Shown here: in pieces, positions 17,572-24,145 of the stretch
Numbering within the stretch: the stretch's first letter is position 1
Layout: every line of letters begins with the position of its first letter
Virus record (IMG/VR): IMGVR_UViG_3300012979_000027
Span: 128,001-192,000 of that record
Length of the DNA: 64,000 bases
Source: a virus
Taxonomy: Duplodnaviria; Caudoviricetes
Direction: 5' to 3' (one strand)
Position numbers and translations under genes: made by a program
The notes under the pieces: generated by a model
What the model was told of the DNA's origin: nothing
Seen by the model: the letters and a program-made list of their open reading frames with translations, nothing else
The model's database searches: none

Positions 17572-17600
17572 AAAAAATGCCGGTTCTAACCGGCATTTTT
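17572..17600 (-). terminator. intrinsic terminator after nadE
   Basis: AAAAATGCCGGT-TCTA-ACCGGCATTTTT. Confidence 0.75.
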
Positions 17601-18485
17601 CACAAAGTTGGGAAGATATGAGAAATCAGGTTGAGGCATCTGCACAATTTCCAACTTGAACTTATTCTGCTTATACTTCTTTCTAATCTTTTCTTTTACT
17701 TCATCATCTCCCTTGTTGAAACGAATAAAGTCATCAATCTGTTTATAAGTAATACCAAGTCGTTCTTCATCAGATTGAGGCTGAAGGCCATCAGCAGGAG
17801 TTTTGTCAATTAGTTCAATCAGTCGTTTATGACCATCTACGGGGTAAGTTTGCCAAGACATATCAGCCATTCTTTCCTTGACAGAAGTATCTTCTAACAT
17901 TTTTTTATTATAAAGTAAAGTAGCAACATAGCAACCTAAGTGCTTTACCTCTGTTACTGTTAATCCTTGAATAGGAGCATACGACCCTGCATTATCGCCA
18001 AATTGTGTGGCATAACCAACCATATCTTCTGAAAGATTGGAAGTATTGATAACACGACCACCAATACATTGACCAACAGCATGAAGTGTAGACATGCGGA
18101 TACGAGCAGGAAGATTGATTTCCATGTCCTTATTAGGATAAACATTATCCATTGAGCGTCTATCCCAAATCTGTTTTGTGATAGCATCCACACTCTCAGC
18201 AATGTTGATAATAGAATGAGAAATACCAAGAATTTTTACCACGTCAAAACTATCATGAATATCAGACTGTGTTCCTTGTGGCATCAATACACCGTGTACT
18301 CGTTCCTTACCAAAAATGGAAACAAGTAATGCAGCTACAACTGTACTGTCTTTACCACCACTAATACCAACAACAAATTTATCAGCGTTCGTAATTGAAG
18401 CCCATGTCTTCAAATGTGTTTCAATGGTTGCATATACCAACTCTAAATTAAAATCATATACTTTCTTTTCGTTCATATTTTCCAT
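17586..18485 (-). CDS. nadE: NH3-dependent NAD+ synthetase
   Basis: GISGGKDS, NLPARIRM, TSNLSE, GYATQFGD, TPADGL, DEERLGITY. Confidence 0.95.
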   Translation of the reverse strand: MENMNEKKVYDFNLELVYATIETHLKTWASITNADKFVVGISGGKDSTVVAALLVSIFGKERVHGVLMPQGTQSDIHDSFDVVKILGISHSIINIAESVDAITKQIWDRRSMDNVYPNKDMEINLPARIRMSTLHAVGQCIGGRVINTSNLSEDMVGYATQFGDNAGSYAPIQGLTVTEVKHLGCYVATLLYNKKMLEDTSVKERMADMSWQTYPVDGHKRLIELIDKTPADGLQPQSDEERLGITYKQIDDFIRFNKGDDEVKEKIRKKYKQNKFKLEIVQMPQPDFSYLPNFVKNAG

Positions 18486-18515
18486 TATCTTATTTTTGCT
18501 TAGTTGAGGGTAGTG

Positions 18516-18707
18516 TCATACTCCCCTCTTTTTTCTTCCAAAAAGTCTATCATCTGTAAGTTTTCTGAAATACGCAGCAGTAGAGTGACATTTGAATGTG
18601 CATGTTTCGTTTCTCTTTTCTTCAAGAATATAATGAGTTACAAAAAACTTGATATTTCGCCATCTCATTTTTCTTCGCCAAAAGATGTCACGATTTTTCA
18701 TACTCAC
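18516..18707 (-). CDS. small basic hypothetical protein
   Basis: ATGA overlap with upstream ORF. Confidence 0.5.
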   Translation of the reverse strand: MSMKNRDIFWRRKMRWRNIKFFVTHYILEEKRNETCTFKCHSTAAYFRKLTDDRLFGRKKRGV

Positions 18708-19099
18708 AGATTTTCATCAATGGTTTCACGACTTGTCTCAAATTCTTTCGTTTCATCTAAATCCTTCCAAAGATTTACTGTAACAGTTCCATCATCATTA
18801 TATTTCAATGCTCTTTTAACACGAAAAAGGGTTCGTTCTAACAAACAGGTTTTATCAATAATATCAGAAATAGTAAAATCTTTATCAAATTCAGTTTCTT
18901 TATTGAACTTATAACCATCTTCATGGGTATATGCTTGTGCTAATAATGATGCAATGAATTCAACGCTTTCTCGCTTATTAACATCAAAATGCTTTTCAAC
19001 ATTATAATTTGTAATGTAATATTTTGCAAATTTAATTACACTAGGTTGTTTTTCTAACCAAGCAATATATTCAAAATACTTCTTTTGTTTTTCTTCCAT
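18704..19099 (-). CDS. hypothetical protein
   Basis: ORF within NAD operon. Confidence 0.7.
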   Translation of the reverse strand: MEEKQKKYFEYIAWLEKQPSVIKFAKYYITNYNVEKHFDVNKRESVEFIASLLAQAYTHEDGYKFNKETEFDKDFTISDIIDKTCLLERTLFRVKRALKYNDDGTVTVNLWKDLDETKEFETSRETIDENL

Positions 19100-19106
19100 A
19101 AGTTAA

Positions 19107-21810: not shown

Positions 21811-21868
21811 AATTTTAGTAATTTTAACTTATAATTTAATTTTATGCAAGTTCTGTCAGGGCCTTAGT

Positions 21869-22705
21869 TTAACGTCCTGACAAATCAATTTCAATTACTT
21901 TCTTTTCGCTGAATATCTTTAGAGTATCTGCAGTATGAATTTCATCAATAATTCCATTTGCATTAGAATTATAAAAATCCTTAGATTGCGGCATCATGTG
22001 AGTGATGTAAAGGTCCACTTTCTTTGCTCCCATTTTACGAAGCGCAGTGGCTGCTTCTCTAAAGGTTCGTCCACCAGCACAAATATCATCGATAATCAGA
22101 ATTCGTTTATCCTTAATATCTTCCTTTTCAGCAATGACTTCATACGAAACAATTTCACCCGTCTTAAGGTCACGCTTCTTGTCGCCAAAACGATAAGGAG
22201 ACTTGAAGAGTTCACTATACTTCTTCGCTGCTCCTGCATCAGGATAGAACATAAGATCATAAGGATTTTCCTCATTGAGATGAACTTCTGCTTCCAAGAA
22301 AGACTTAACAGGATAATTCACATGACAATGCTTTAGCAAAGCAGGAAGTACATTACTGTGTGGGTCACATATGTAAACTGCTCTGAAATTCAAATCATTG
22401 ATAATCTCTGCCACATACTTCAAACTAAACAAATGAACACCTGTGTCTCTATCCATCTGCCCATAAGGGAAGAAATCAATAACAAGTCTTGCCCAATTGT
22501 TAGGATAAGCATCATCCCACCACTTCTTAATAACCTGAAGATTGAACAAGTCCTCATTGCTTTCATAAACAACTTTGAACTCATCCCAACAAGGTTCTTC
22601 AAAAGGAACAGGACAGGTTGCCTTTAGCCTATTAGCAGAAACATAGTCAACTTCATTGTTAGGGAAGCGACTCTGTACTACATTTATTCCATTAAACGTT
22701 ACCAT
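21869..22705 (-). CDS. ribose-phosphate pyrophosphokinase-like (Prs / Adps-like)
   Basis: FPYGQMDR, DPHS, PDAGA, KKRD, IIDDICAGGRTF, LYITH. Confidence 0.9.
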   Translation of the reverse strand: MVTFNGINVVQSRFPNNEVDYVSANRLKATCPVPFEEPCWDEFKVVYESNEDLFNLQVIKKWWDDAYPNNWARLVIDFFPYGQMDRDTGVHLFSLKYVAEIINDLNFRAVYICDPHSNVLPALLKHCHVNYPVKSFLEAEVHLNEENPYDLMFYPDAGAAKKYSELFKSPYRFGDKKRDLKTGEIVSYEVIAEKEDIKDKRILIIDDICAGGRTFREAATALRKMGAKKVDLYITHMMPQSKDFYNSNANGIIDEIHTADTLKIFSEKKVIEIDLSGR

Positions 22706-22710
22706 GATTT

Positions 22711-23508
22711 TTACTTTTCTTTTTTCTCAAAAAATTTACAAACATCATTATCAGATACAGTTTTATAACCTTTATGTCTTCCGCTATATCTATTAGCAGG
22801 ATACCAAACCATATTTTCCTTTTTAAGGCATTCACCAACTATCAATGAACCATGAGTAGGAGTTTCAGAAAAATACTTACAAAGAAAACAGTTTCTGCCC
22901 AAAGAGCTTTCCATCGGAATAGTTAAGTTATAATTCTTTTCAATATAATTCATCAACAACTGTGCATAATGTTCTGCGCTATCTACTTCCGAAGGAATAC
23001 TACCATAATCTGCAAGTTCACCTTGAATTAAAACATCTGCTTTACGATGAAAATCTTTGTGTATTGCTACAAAAACGTCATTTTTACGTAGCTTATCAAA
23101 ATCATCTATTTCAATTTTTTTTCCCAGTGCTCTACCCATTTCATAAAAACAGATAGGTTGTGGCGAAGGAGAATTGGAAAAATACATAGAGAAAAGAACA
23201 CGAGGAGTATTCAAATATTTGAATTCCCATTCAATTTGCTCTCTAGTAGCATTAGGATTAGTTACATCAAAAGAATCTCTACGAGGGTTAAGAAAAATAA
23301 TACCTCGTTCGTGTTTCCAATTTTTCTTAAAATAGTTAATGACAACTTTTTGCCATTCCTCACAATTAGTGATGCCACCTGCTAAAAATACAGGAATAGC
23401 AAACACTAAATTATAAGACGCAAGTTCAACATCTTCAGGGCAAGTAACGACTGTTACTTTATTTGCAAAAAGCTCCTTTGCTTTTTTTGCGTAAGAATTA
23501 TAGAACAT
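22711..23508 (-). CDS. nucleoside 2-deoxyribosyltransferase-like protein with C-terminal Cys-rich domain
   Basis: VFLAGGIT..WQ, NPRR, QIEWE, PICFYEMG; start reassigned to ATG 23508. Confidence 0.8.
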   Translation of the reverse strand: MFYNSYAKKAKELFANKVTVVTCPEDVELASYNLVFAIPVFLAGGITNCEEWQKVVINYFKKNWKHERGIIFLNPRRDSFDVTNPNATREQIEWEFKYLNTPRVLFSMYFSNSPSPQPICFYEMGRALGKKIEIDDFDKLRKNDVFVAIHKDFHRKADVLIQGELADYGSIPSEVDSAEHYAQLLMNYIEKNYNLTIPMESSLGRNCFLCKYFSETPTHGSLIVGECLKKENMVWYPANRYSGRHKGYKTVSDNDVCKFFEKKEK

Positions 23509-24145
23509 AACTTTCAGATTTCTCAATATCAATCTGACAGCAACCCATTGTAGTGAGGGCCGCCTTATGTGTATCTTCAGTAACACATGCACACAAATCC
23601 TCAAGAACAGTAATCTTCATATCAGGGAACAAACCACGAATATAGAGAGCATTAGATGCTACGCAAATACCCGTGCAAAAACCCATAAGTACAATCTCGT
23701 CAATCTCATGAGACATATCCATTTTGATATCCTTCATGAAATTACCAATGTGTCTGCCAAGGTAATACGACATAAAGGTATGCTTATCATAAATTCTATG
23801 AGGAGTAACGTGCTTCATCACCTCTTCATCAATCTCCCATCCCCATGTGTCCTTTATACAATGCTCAACGGGGAGCTTCTTACCCTCAAGAGTGTTTTCA
23901 TACCAGCAAGCTTCTGAAATTTCACTACTCCACTTCTTACCGTCCTTTTCAAACTCATCACCAACACTTTCCTTGTTGAAGTGCGTGTCACGGGTAGCCC
24001 AAATACCAACAGTATCTTCCTTGTCCTTTACCATAGAAAGGAACTTGGCAATGTTAGGAGTTACACGCTTAGCCCAATCAGAACCAAGACTTCCACTAAT
24101 GAAGTCGTTCTGAACATCAATTACAATATAAAGCTTTTTTGTCAT
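23498..24145 (-). CDS. pncA: nicotinamidase (isochorismatase family)
   Basis: VIDVQNDF, TRDTH, HC, K-HTF, GFCTGICV. Confidence 0.9.
   Translation of the reverse strand: MTKKLYIVIDVQNDFISGSLGSDWAKRVTPNIAKFLSMVKDKEDTVGIWATRDTHFNKESVGDEFEKDGKKWSSEISEACWYENTLEGKKLPVEHCIKDTWGWEIDEEVMKHVTPHRIYDKHTFMSYYLGRHIGNFMKDIKMDMSHEIDEIVLMGFCTGICVASNALYIRGLFPDMKITVLEDLCACVTEDTHKAALTTMGCCQIDIEKSESYVL

Follow-up and report, generated by a model that had tools for sequence, protein, structure and literature searches.

A phage gene set that most likely rebuilds NAD+ through nicotinic acid, an untested variant of NARP1 that also occurs as a regulated operon in gut Clostridia

How could a phage rebuild NAD+ with a nicotinamidase and an NAD synthetase, but without an adenylyltransferase next to them? 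This question is raised by a 64,000-nucleotide stretch (hereafter the window) of a 208-kb gut phage genome, in which genes for a PncA-like nicotinamidase, an NDT-like protein, a Prs-like enzyme, a Nampt/Namat-like transferase and NadE lie together on one strand. Phages are known to restore NAD+ through NAD+ reconstitution pathway 1 (NARP1), in which the Prs-like Adps converts ADP-ribose (ADPR) to ADPR-PP and Namat adds nicotinamide to it. The initial annotation, made from the sequence alone, proposed that the transferase of this locus instead takes nicotinate, is fed by PncA and is followed by NadE. Here we show that the gene set is real and conserved, and that comparative evidence favors such a deamidated route, although no biochemistry exists for any of its steps. 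In our search of the literature we found no paper describing this module, nor one in which nicotinate and ADPR-PP are joined to nicotinate adenine dinucleotide (NaAD).

Results

The gene set is present and conserved

Every gene that had been named in the initial annotation was recovered on the minus strand, and its observation therefore holds (Table 1). The set is far more than a chance arrangement, since it is conserved in more than 100 related loci. No cytidylyltransferase-family (NMNAT/NadD) gene is found within the cluster, and the only one in the 208-kb genome encodes an HxGH protein located 20 kb away on the other strand.

Table 1. Features of the NAD+ gene cluster in the window, with the sequence evidence for each
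Feature	Position	Strand	Length	Assignment and proposed role	Evidence
pncA	23498..24145	-	215 aa	Nicotinamidase (isochorismatase family)	PF00857 E 4e-20; best solved relative yeast Pnc1 (2h0r), E 5e-13, with aligned motifs
NDT-like gene	22711..23508	-	265 aa from the likely start, ATG 23508; maximal ORF starts at TTG 23604	PF15891 protein with a Cys-rich C-terminal part; accessory gene of unknown role	PF15891 E 1.4e-11; best solved hit is an uncharacterised protein, 4mcj; Atlas clusters are all 'hypothetical' PF15891
Prs-like gene	21869..22705	-	278 aa	Adps-family Prs-like enzyme; proposed ADPR + ATP -> ADPR-PP + AMP	phrog_619 E 8e-61; TIGR01251 77.5 bits, cut-off 113
Transferase gene	20014..21810	-	598 aa	Namat-family transferase, Ser/Ala subtype; proposed nicotinate + ADPR-PP -> NaAD + PPi	phmmer against PDB: SPbetaL1 Namat (9w5x) 1e-80
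Codon of Ser216	21163..21165	-		Position of Namat Asp215 / human NAMPT Asp219, which hydrogen-bonds the amide of nicotinamide	Alignment of WNSSTV (window) against TGTDTI
Homing endonuclease gene	19107..19955	-		HNH + NUMOD3, inserted between the transferase gene and nadE; a passenger, not part of the pathway	PF07460 E 8.5e-14; phrog_655 E 1e-29
ORF	18704..19099	-	131 aa	No family	No Pfam or PHROG hit
Small ORF		-	63 aa	Doubtful ORF	
nadE	17586..18485	-	299 aa	NH3-dependent NAD synthetase type, no glutaminase domain; proposed NaAD -> NAD+	PF02540 E 3e-43; TIGR00552 E 2e-41, 142 bits, cut-off 63.65; solved relatives 2e18 and 3fiu, E about 1e-24
HxGH protein gene	43886..44497	opposite to the cluster	203 aa	Unassigned nucleotidyltransferase	Only NMNAT/NadD-family gene in the genome

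Both outer enzymes carry the motifs expected of their families. The catalytic triad of the nicotinamidase (D10, K121 and C161) and its metal ligands (D53, H55 and H95) align to yeast Pnc1 and are essentially invariant among about 48 cassette homologs, while the SGGxDS P-loop of NadE, which reads GISGGKDS in the window, is essentially invariant among 50. The homing endonuclease is absent at this place in three relatives (loci L003-L005 of our set of related loci). The length of 265 aa for the NDT-like protein is that found in relative L005, and homologs of it lie beside both Ser-type loci (the window, L005 and L092-L094) and Asp-type loci (L048, L057, L059 and L086). As such, it is an accessory also found beside ordinary Asp-type NARP1 loci and is not specific to the present variant.

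The Prs-like protein belongs with Adps

The Prs-like gene ends 59 nt upstream of the transferase gene, and such a gene is nearby in 161 of 168 family loci counted without a flank filter. Its product scores below the curated cut-off of every NCBIfam PRPP synthetase model that it matched, and by tblastn it is about 34% identical to ICP1 Adps and about 41% to the Felix O1 Prs-like gene. With 278 aa it is as short as ICP1 Adps (280 aa), which lacks the C-terminal alpha11-alpha12 of PRPS. The equivalents of the ICP1 Adps residues F18, H121, D161, D212, D213 and the catalytic K185 are invariant in 47 of 47 cassette homologs, and R87 in 41 of 47. It should be noted, however, that these residues are largely shared with PRPS and do not prove ADPR specificity. 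Furthermore, the PP-loop used for the donor ATP (C215-D-G-A-A-S220, F221 and F223 in ICP1) reads C-A-G-G-R-T-F in the window, and DDICAGGRT, compared to DDICDGAAS of ICP1 Adps, looks no less like ordinary PRTase loops; this loop varies in the partners of both Asp-type and Ala/Ser-type transferases, and it does not settle the assignment in either direction. In bacteria that carry the cassette, the Prs-like protein is a second, sub-cut-off paralog beside a housekeeping Prs.

The transferase is of the Namat family, but with a remodelled base pocket

Placement of the transferase relative to the known Adps and Namat proteins had been named in advance as a check on the proposal. By sequence it is nearer to the solved Namat (1e-80) than to H. 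ducreyi NadV (2e-68) or human NAMPT (1e-36), and its AF2 model (pLDDT 89.4) likewise has its best fold match in 9w5x (E 1e-44, TM 0.89). Among the first 60 of its 150 nearest 50%-cluster representatives, all complete sequences have a Namat-type GS-aromatic...TRD clamp or a close variant, and none has the NAMPT GSGGG form. In contrast, the protein scores only 21.7 bits on TIGR01513, the PncB-family nicotinate phosphoribosyltransferase model, whose cut-off is 297.

The Nampt-type catalytic core is conserved: the catalytic His (H243) and R311, D313, F190, R193, D10 and Y12, equivalent to Arg306, Asp308, Phe189, Arg192, Asp13' and Tyr15' of Namat. The SCL clamp arginine Arg40' corresponds to R37 and is Arg in 54 of 60 sequences of the subtype. 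Of the SCH clamp, for which Namat has the motif G-S-X-phi-X-phi-X-phi-T-R-D with aromatic X at positions 3 and 7, the window retains F485 (Phe392) and T501/R502/D503. However, it reads GSFSFQ, followed by a 10-residue insertion and PFTRD, and loses the equivalent of Tyr396; most members carry such a 10-11-residue insertion, whereas basal members of the subtype have the canonical motif. Adenine recognition may therefore be altered, and whether the window's clamp counts as that of Namat is left undecided by this comparison. The R40A/F392G double mutant is the one that most impairs the use of ADPR-PP by Namat (PMC12774641).

The base pocket, on the other hand, differs clearly. Ser216 aligns without ambiguity to Asp215 of SPbetaL1 Namat, so that the Ser variant pointed out in the initial annotation is real. 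Asp215 hydrogen-bonds nicotinamide and its D215A mutation lowers NAD+ formation 8-fold (PMC12774641), and Asp219 defines the substrate specificity of NAMPT (PMC7096376). Three columns separate 60 Ala/Ser-type sequences from 114 Asp-type sequences completely: S216 of the window (Ala or Ser in 59 of 60, with one Val, against Asp/Glu in 114 of 114), S240 (Ala in the Asp type, equal to Ala242 of the nicotinamide pocket of Namat) and C188 (His in the Asp type, equal to human His191). N214 (Gly in the Asp type) and K449 (Gly, becoming Lys/Arg) separate the two nearly completely.

The pocket switch goes together with PncA and NadE

We then turned to the co-occurrence of pncA and nadE with the Ser variant, which had been put forward beforehand as a test. 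Among Namat-family loci with at least 4 kb of flank on both sides, 92 are of the Ala/Ser type, and these have PncA nearby in 92, a Prs-like gene in 91 and NadE in 88. The 28 Asp/Glu-type loci have PncA in 0, a Prs-like gene in 28 and NadE in 0. This is, however, a single deep split on the tree, and thus one evolutionary event retained over deep divergence, rather than many independent ones. Basal Ala/Ser members with a fully canonical clamp also have NAD synthase nearby, and isochorismatase too where the contig reaches far enough (loci L088 and L089). Moreover, PF01467, the family of NMN/NaMN adenylyltransferases, is absent from three 100%-complete phage genomes that carry the module.

The same cassette sits in chromosomes of gut Clostridia, and the module is therefore not a phage invention only. 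NrtR, a regulator whose effector is ADP-ribose (PMC2330246), is adjacent in 50 of 81 cassettes from genome assemblies, and these bacterial cassettes use a standard glutamine-dependent NadE. Of five bacterial genomes with the cassette, all have NadD, three also have a canonical PncB, and two lack it. As three hosts possess PncB, the transferase is not simply its replacement.

Discussion

What, then, does this gene set make? We consider it more likely than not that it constitutes a deamidated, nicotinate-type version of NARP1. In this view, PncA hydrolyses the nicotinamide released by NAD+ cleavage to nicotinate, the Adps-family enzyme pyrophosphorylates ADP-ribose to ADPR-PP, the transferase, with its amide-recognising Asp replaced by Ser (Ala in most relatives) and two further pocket residues changed, joins nicotinate to ADPR-PP to give NaAD, and NadE amidates NaAD to NAD+. 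No mononucleotide intermediate would be formed, and no adenylyltransferase would be needed. In the phage, the module would restore NAD+ in infected cells, plausibly against NAD+-depleting defences, whereas in gut Clostridia, next to the ADPR-sensing repressor NrtR, it would recycle endogenous NAD+ breakdown products. While the identities of the genes, the conservation of their motifs, their co-occurrence and the family placement follow directly from our analysis, every substrate and product, as well as the anti-defence role, is inferred; formation of ADPR-PP and direct synthesis of a dinucleotide were not measured here, and no enzyme of this subtype has been assayed. The closest solved NadE relatives, moreover, include Francisella NadE (3fiu), which prefers NaMN, so that the substrate of NadE is not fixed by sequence. 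The interpretation given in the initial annotation is thus supported, by comparisons that were not available to it, though its additional suggestion that NaAD forms an NADase-resistant reservoir is untested.

If taken to its full extent, this would mean a previously undescribed enzyme reaction and pathway, in which a Namat-family 'nicotinate ADP-ribose transferase' rebuilds NAD+ from both of its cleavage products through a deamidated dinucleotide. The pathway would then be a regular, NrtR-controlled NAD+ recycling route in gut Clostridia, captured by their phages, from about 140 kb to jumbo size, as a counter-measure to NAD+-depleting immunity. We regard this full reading as about as likely as not.

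The main rival, which we consider possible but less likely, is a Preiss-Handler route with a recruited transferase, an alternative that the initial annotation had also raised. Here PncA makes nicotinate, the Prs-like enzyme makes PRPP, the Ala/Ser-type enzyme converts nicotinate to NaMN, a host NadD or the HxGH protein of this phage adenylates NaMN to NaAD, and NadE finishes. Namat itself still uses PRPP in vitro (PMC12774641), which makes a PRPP/NaMN activity plausible, and the insertion in the clamp, its lack of the Tyr396 equivalent, the presence of NadD in all five bacterial genomes and the absence of PncB from two of them are in line with it. In addition, the nearest NCBIfam model for the transferase is named nicotinate phosphoribosyltransferase, though its score of 357 bits lies below the cut-off of 405. 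This route is not excluded, and least so in the present genome, since its phage lineage conserves the HxGH nucleotidyltransferase, which two JGI records automatically name NaMN adenylyltransferase. By fold, however, that protein is nearest to phosphopantetheine adenylyltransferase, and it is neither close to the cluster nor on its strand. Furthermore, the transferase and its partner belong to the Namat and Adps families and keep the ADPR-PP-specific clamp residues Arg40' and Phe392, basal members with a canonical clamp already carry NadE (and PncA where the contig allows), a dedicated second Prs paralog is unexplained if only PRPP is needed, three of five hosts already have PncB, and the three complete phage genomes have no PF01467 gene.

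It is unlikely that this is an ordinary NARP1 with unrelated helpers, in which the transferase still uses nicotinamide, and PncA and NadE serve, for instance, to boost the Preiss-Handler flux of the host or to remove nicotinamide. D215A Namat does keep about one eighth of its activity with nicotinamide, and all other catalytic residues are intact, yet PncA would destroy the enzyme's own substrate, the link between the three-column switch and PncA has no exception among assessable loci, and no Asp-type locus has either PncA or NadE. Least likely is amidation at the mononucleotide level, with NadE acting as an NMN synthetase (NaMN to NMN) ahead of an NMN adenylyltransferase, possibly the HxGH protein: although one of the two best solved NadE relatives is Francisella NadE (3fiu, E 4e-24), which prefers NaMN, complete relatives lack the adenylyltransferase that this route needs, the other top relative (2e18) and most others are ordinary NaAD-using enzymes, and the bacterial cassettes use standard glutamine-dependent NadE.

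Of the systems already known, NARP1 of phages SPbetaL1, Bas63 and ICP1 (bioRxiv 10.1101/2024.02.11.579819; PMC12774641; PMC13586617) is closest, sharing the adjacent Adps-family gene, the catalytic core, and the clamp residues Arg40', Phe392 and Thr-Arg-Asp. It differs in having Asp215, Ala242 and the His before DFSMRG (Gly/Ser/Cys in the present subtype), in lacking the clamp insertion of most members, in that neither PncA nor NadE is ever found beside its Asp-type loci, and in its product, which is NAD+ rather than the NaAD predicted here. Canonical Preiss-Handler salvage (PncA-PncB-NadD-NadE), including the clusters of 'NAD-jumbo phages' (Microbiome 2024, PMC11662467), has the same first and last steps and nicotinate as the pyridine intermediate. 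The cassette, however, has no PncB-family NAPRTase and no NadD, and the middle of the pathway is taken by an Adps/Namat pair, which would bypass NaMN and reuse ADP-ribose. The nrtR-prs-nadV operons of gamma-proteobacteria (Rodionov et al. 2008, PMC2330246) likewise pair a second Prs paralog, there taken to be a PRPP supplier, with a NadV-like gene under NrtR. No pncA-prs-nadV-nadE-nrtR operon appears in the parts of that study that we consulted, and whether its transferases are Asp-type was not examined. Finally, NARP2 (Nampt + Nmnat) and NARP3 (PnuC + NadR; PMC13464706) are also phage-encoded routes that restore NAD+, but both pass through NMN, need an adenylyltransferase and involve no deamidated intermediates, while one close relative of the window, L005, adds a PnuC-like gene to the cassette.

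Gene content of the module

The window is part of a 208,368-bp virus record that is about 99% complete, and its minus strand carries the set of genes listed in the table below. The initial annotation had described this set as co-oriented genes for NAD+ metabolism without an adenylyltransferase among them, and this observation held as it was written: no cytidylyltransferase-family gene is present in the cluster, and the only one in the genome encodes a distant HxGH protein. Megablast of the region against GenBank phages returned nothing, and the promoter and terminator scans were at chance level and therefore say nothing about operon structure. 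The module is flanked by replication and repair genes, and as such lies in the early/DNA-metabolism region of the phage. A homing endonuclease gene sits between the transferase gene and nadE, and Felix O1 (locus L007) also has an HNH gene between its Prs-like gene and nadV. NARP loci may be recurrent homing sites.

Features of the window and of related loci, with positions where available
Feature	Position	Strand	Length	Remarks
Whole gene cluster	24145 to 17586	-		pncA to nadE
PncA-like isochorismatase		-	215 aa
NDT-like PF15891 protein	from ATG 23508	-	265 aa
Prs-like protein		-	278 aa
Nampt-fold transferase		-	598 aa
Insertion in the transferase	20551-20838		about 95 residues	residues ~325-420, beta-rich
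HNH + NUMOD3 homing endonuclease	19107-19955	-
Two small ORFs		-
NadE, NH3-dependent type		-	299 aa
Flanking replication and repair genes	13034-17542 and 25199-26251	-	897, 603 and 350 aa	family B DNA polymerase, SbcC/SMC-like ATPase and calcineurin-like phosphoesterase (SbcD-like), respectively
Nucleotidyltransferase	41986-42798	+	270 aa	phrog_14344, E 2e-19; function unknown
HxGH cytidylyltransferase-like protein	43886-44497	+	203 aa	motif GSFKPPHKGH; family unassigned
PnuC-like NMN_transporter gene in L005	8268-8927			close relative, transferase 74% identical
Cassette in L088	5538-14889			basal Ala-type
Operon in L115	6620-12312			Pseudoruminococcus massiliensis, chromosomal

The best solved relative of the PncA-like protein is yeast nicotinamidase Pnc1 (E 5e-13). 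The catalytic Asp10, Lys121 and Cys161 and the metal ligands Asp53, His55 and His95 align, and are essentially invariant in about 48 homologs from related cassettes. NadE has the SGGxDS loop and resembles the NH3-dependent NAD synthetases 2e18 and 3fiu at E about 1e-24. The Prs-like protein scores below the curated cut-off of every NCBIfam PRPP synthetase model that it matched (77.5 bits against 113 for TIGR01251), whereas it fits the phage family phrog_619 at E 8e-61 and resembles the Prs-like genes of Felix O1-type phages and of ICP1, the product of the latter being a structurally characterised Adps (PMC13586617). The transferase matches the solved SPbetaL1 Namat at E 1e-80, H. ducreyi NadV at 2e-68 and human NAMPT at 1e-36, and an AlphaFold model (pLDDT 89.4) has the Namat crystal structures as its best fold matches (E 1e-44, TM 0.89). 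For the NDT-like protein, attempts at assignment yielded nothing beyond PF15891. Because this gene also occurs beside Asp-type loci, we regard it as an accessory, and rejected it as a step specific to the deamidated route.

Base pocket of the transferase

The alignment of the transferase to Namat is gap-free around the active site, and residue numbers transfer exactly. The catalytic His243, Arg311, Asp313, Phe190, Arg193, Asp10 and Tyr12, as well as the phosphate loops, are conserved. In contrast, Asp215 of Namat is Ser216 here. The Namat structure paper shows this Asp hydrogen-bonding nicotinamide, and reports an 8-fold loss of NAD+ synthesis for D215A. The homologous Asp219 is cited as the determinant of NAMPT substrate specificity (PMC7096376). 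In structural work from 2006, a D219S substitution reportedly lets NAMPT use nicotinic acid, a point that was not checked here.

We compared 60 Ala/Ser-type with 114 Asp-type family members, and found that three columns separate the two groups completely: Ser216, Ser240 (Ala in the Asp type, corresponding to Ala242 of the Namat nicotinamide pocket), and Cys188 (His in every Asp-type sequence, corresponding to human His191). Two more columns, Asn214 (Gly in the Asp type) and Lys449 (Gly in the Asp type, Lys/Arg here), separate them nearly completely. We also considered the insertion in the Nampt fold, which has lower model confidence, no family match and an unknown function, as a marker of the subtype. 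This was rejected, since about half of both the Asp-type and the Ala/Ser-type family members have it, including Felix O1 NadV.

Residues expected to contact ADPR-PP

The Namat paper defines an adenine ‘selectivity clamp’, in which the R40A/F392G double mutant is the one that most damages ADPR-PP use. Both residues are kept here (Arg37 and Phe485), and so is the Thr-Arg-Asp triplet. The clamp helix does carry a 10-residue insertion and loses the Tyr396 equivalent, which leaves the match to the clamp motif ambiguous for this protein. However, basal members of the Ala/Ser group have a perfectly canonical GSYTYQYVTRD motif.

The partner Prs-like proteins keep the ICP1 Adps contacts, with Phe18, His121, Asp161, Lys185, Asp212 and Asp213 invariant in 47 of 47, and Arg87 in 41 of 47. 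We looked for a sequence rule to tell Adps from PRPP synthetase, but the residues named in the Adps structure paper are mostly ancestral PRPS residues and the PP-loop varies, so that sequence alone neither discriminates between ADPR and ribose 5-phosphate nor proves ADPR use. Furthermore, these proteins show no systematic difference from the partners of Asp-type enzymes.

Co-occurrence with PncA and NadE

Whether pncA and nadE accompany the Ser variant had been listed in the initial annotation among the ways of probing the proposed pathway. A single-protein scan of viral contigs gave only 2 loci, so that an alignment-based scan was needed. We collected 168 Namat-family loci from three sources, being an alignment-based scan of viral contigs (80 loci), a scan of species-representative genomes (80 loci), and look-ups of individual proteins, and scanned each with profiles for the five proteins. 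Of the loci with at least 4 kb on both sides, PncA was nearby in every Ala/Ser-type locus and NadE in nearly every one, while neither was found near any Asp/Glu-type locus.

Genes near Namat-family loci with at least 4 kb of sequence on both sides
Type	Loci	PncA nearby	Prs-like nearby	NadE nearby
Ala/Ser	92	92	91	88
Asp/Glu	28	0	28	0

The only assessable locus without the Adps-like partner is L074, where an Ala-type transferase (‘VSAT’) with a canonical clamp has PncA and NadE nearby, but no Prs-like gene within 10 kb. Gene order varies, with PncA lying upstream in some lineages and downstream in others, and the cassette often consists of four contiguous genes of about 3.7 kb. In the close relative L005, a PnuC-like gene lies inside the same cassette together with a 419-aa NadE preceded by an AAA protein, which hints at combined use of imported precursors. 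The basal cassette of L088 is embedded among T4 Rnl2-type RNA ligase, YAcAr, AAA_33 kinase-like and PolyA_pol (CCA-adding type) genes, which looks like an RNA-repair set next to the NAD module.

A phylogeny had likewise been suggested beforehand. On a FastTree tree of 174 sequences, the Asp type is one side of a branch with 99% support, and the label needs only one change. We had considered many independent origins of the Ala/Ser state, and rejected these on the basis of this tree. The association is therefore one ancient event, retained across sequences that share as little as about 35% identity.

Adenylyltransferase genes in phages with the module

Three complete phage genomes with the Ala-type cassette (148, 147 and 201 kb) have no PF01467 gene at all, while the control genomes all gave a signal. 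The lineage of the window does, however, conserve the HxGH protein. Searches of Pfam, NCBIfam, PHROGs, PDB sequences and the Atlas, and an AF2 model compared with Foldseek, all gave only a generic ‘cytidylyltransferase-like’ assignment. By predicted fold it is nearest to phosphopantetheine adenylyltransferase, with a NaMN adenylyltransferase only at rank 42. It could be an NaMN/NMN adenylyltransferase, but nothing specific supports that. In this genome, therefore, the NaMN route is not excluded on gene content. The nucleotidyltransferase gene about 1 kb upstream of the HxGH protein is separated from it by two ORFs without any family match.

Cassettes in bacterial genomes

Many cassettes from genome assemblies are not phage-borne. 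In the isolate Pseudoruminococcus massiliensis (locus L115) the order is pncA, Prs-like, Ala-type transferase (NadV-like), a glutamine-dependent nadE, and then an NrtR regulator, flanked by agrB, aspartate-semialdehyde dehydrogenase and other chromosomal genes, with five tandem Tim44-like-domain paralogs upstream. An NrtR-like gene lies next to 50 of 81 Ala/Ser loci from genome assemblies, and next to none of 49 viral ones. NrtR is released from DNA by ADP-ribose (PMC2330246), which fits an operon that consumes ADP-ribose. Five bacterial genomes with the cassette all have NadD, and a housekeeping Prs in addition to the sub-cut-off cassette paralog, while three of the five also have a canonical PncB. 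The transferase is thus not simply a PncB replacement, although in two genomes it could be.

Discussion

The mechanism best supported by these data is a deamidated NARP1, in which PncA converts nicotinamide to nicotinate, the Adps-like enzyme converts ADPR to ADPR-PP, the Ser/Ala-type Namat joins nicotinate and ADPR-PP to NaAD, and NadE converts NaAD to NAD+. The interpretation put forward in the initial annotation is as such supported, and we consider it more likely than not. While gene content, the pocket switch and the co-occurrence were read from the sequences, the reaction steps are an interpretation of these, and the anti-defence role in the phage is inferred from NARP1. The bacterial copies suggest that the primary role is NAD+ recycling, and that phages borrowed it.

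The main rival, which we regard as possible but unlikely, is that the pair makes PRPP and NaMN and relies on NadD. That nicotinamide is still the substrate, or that amidation happens at the mononucleotide level, are minor alternatives.

If the chemistry holds, it would also explain a widespread, unrecognised NAD+ recycling operon in gut Clostridia, currently annotated as NAMPT or ‘nicotinate phosphoribosyltransferase’ plus Prs. It gives a simple sequence rule for annotation, being Asp against Ala/Ser at the Asp215 site together with the Ala242 and His switches, and suggests clean specificity-swap mutants. Furthermore, it bears on which phages can overcome TIR/SIR2-type defences in gut bacteria, and on gut niacin/NAD metabolism, where bacterial PncA is already known to affect the mammalian host.

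The NARP1, Namat, Adps, NARP3, aRES and RyR papers do not mention PncA, NadE or nicotinate in this connection, and literature searches linking NARP1, ADPR-PP or Namat with nicotinate, PncA, NadE or NaAD, or for a ‘NARP4’, found no report. The 2008 NrtR paper (PMC2330246) lists nrtR-prs-nadV operons but, as far as it was consulted, not this cassette, and the 2024 ‘NAD-jumbo phage’ survey describes canonical pncB-nadD-nadE clusters and mentions phage NAMPT and pncA genes only in general terms. Compared with NARP1, the present module differs in the base pocket of its transferase and in its linkage to PncA and NadE, and if the proposed chemistry is correct, it adds a new reaction (nicotinate + ADPR-PP -> NaAD) and a fourth kind of phage NAD+ restoration route to those already described.
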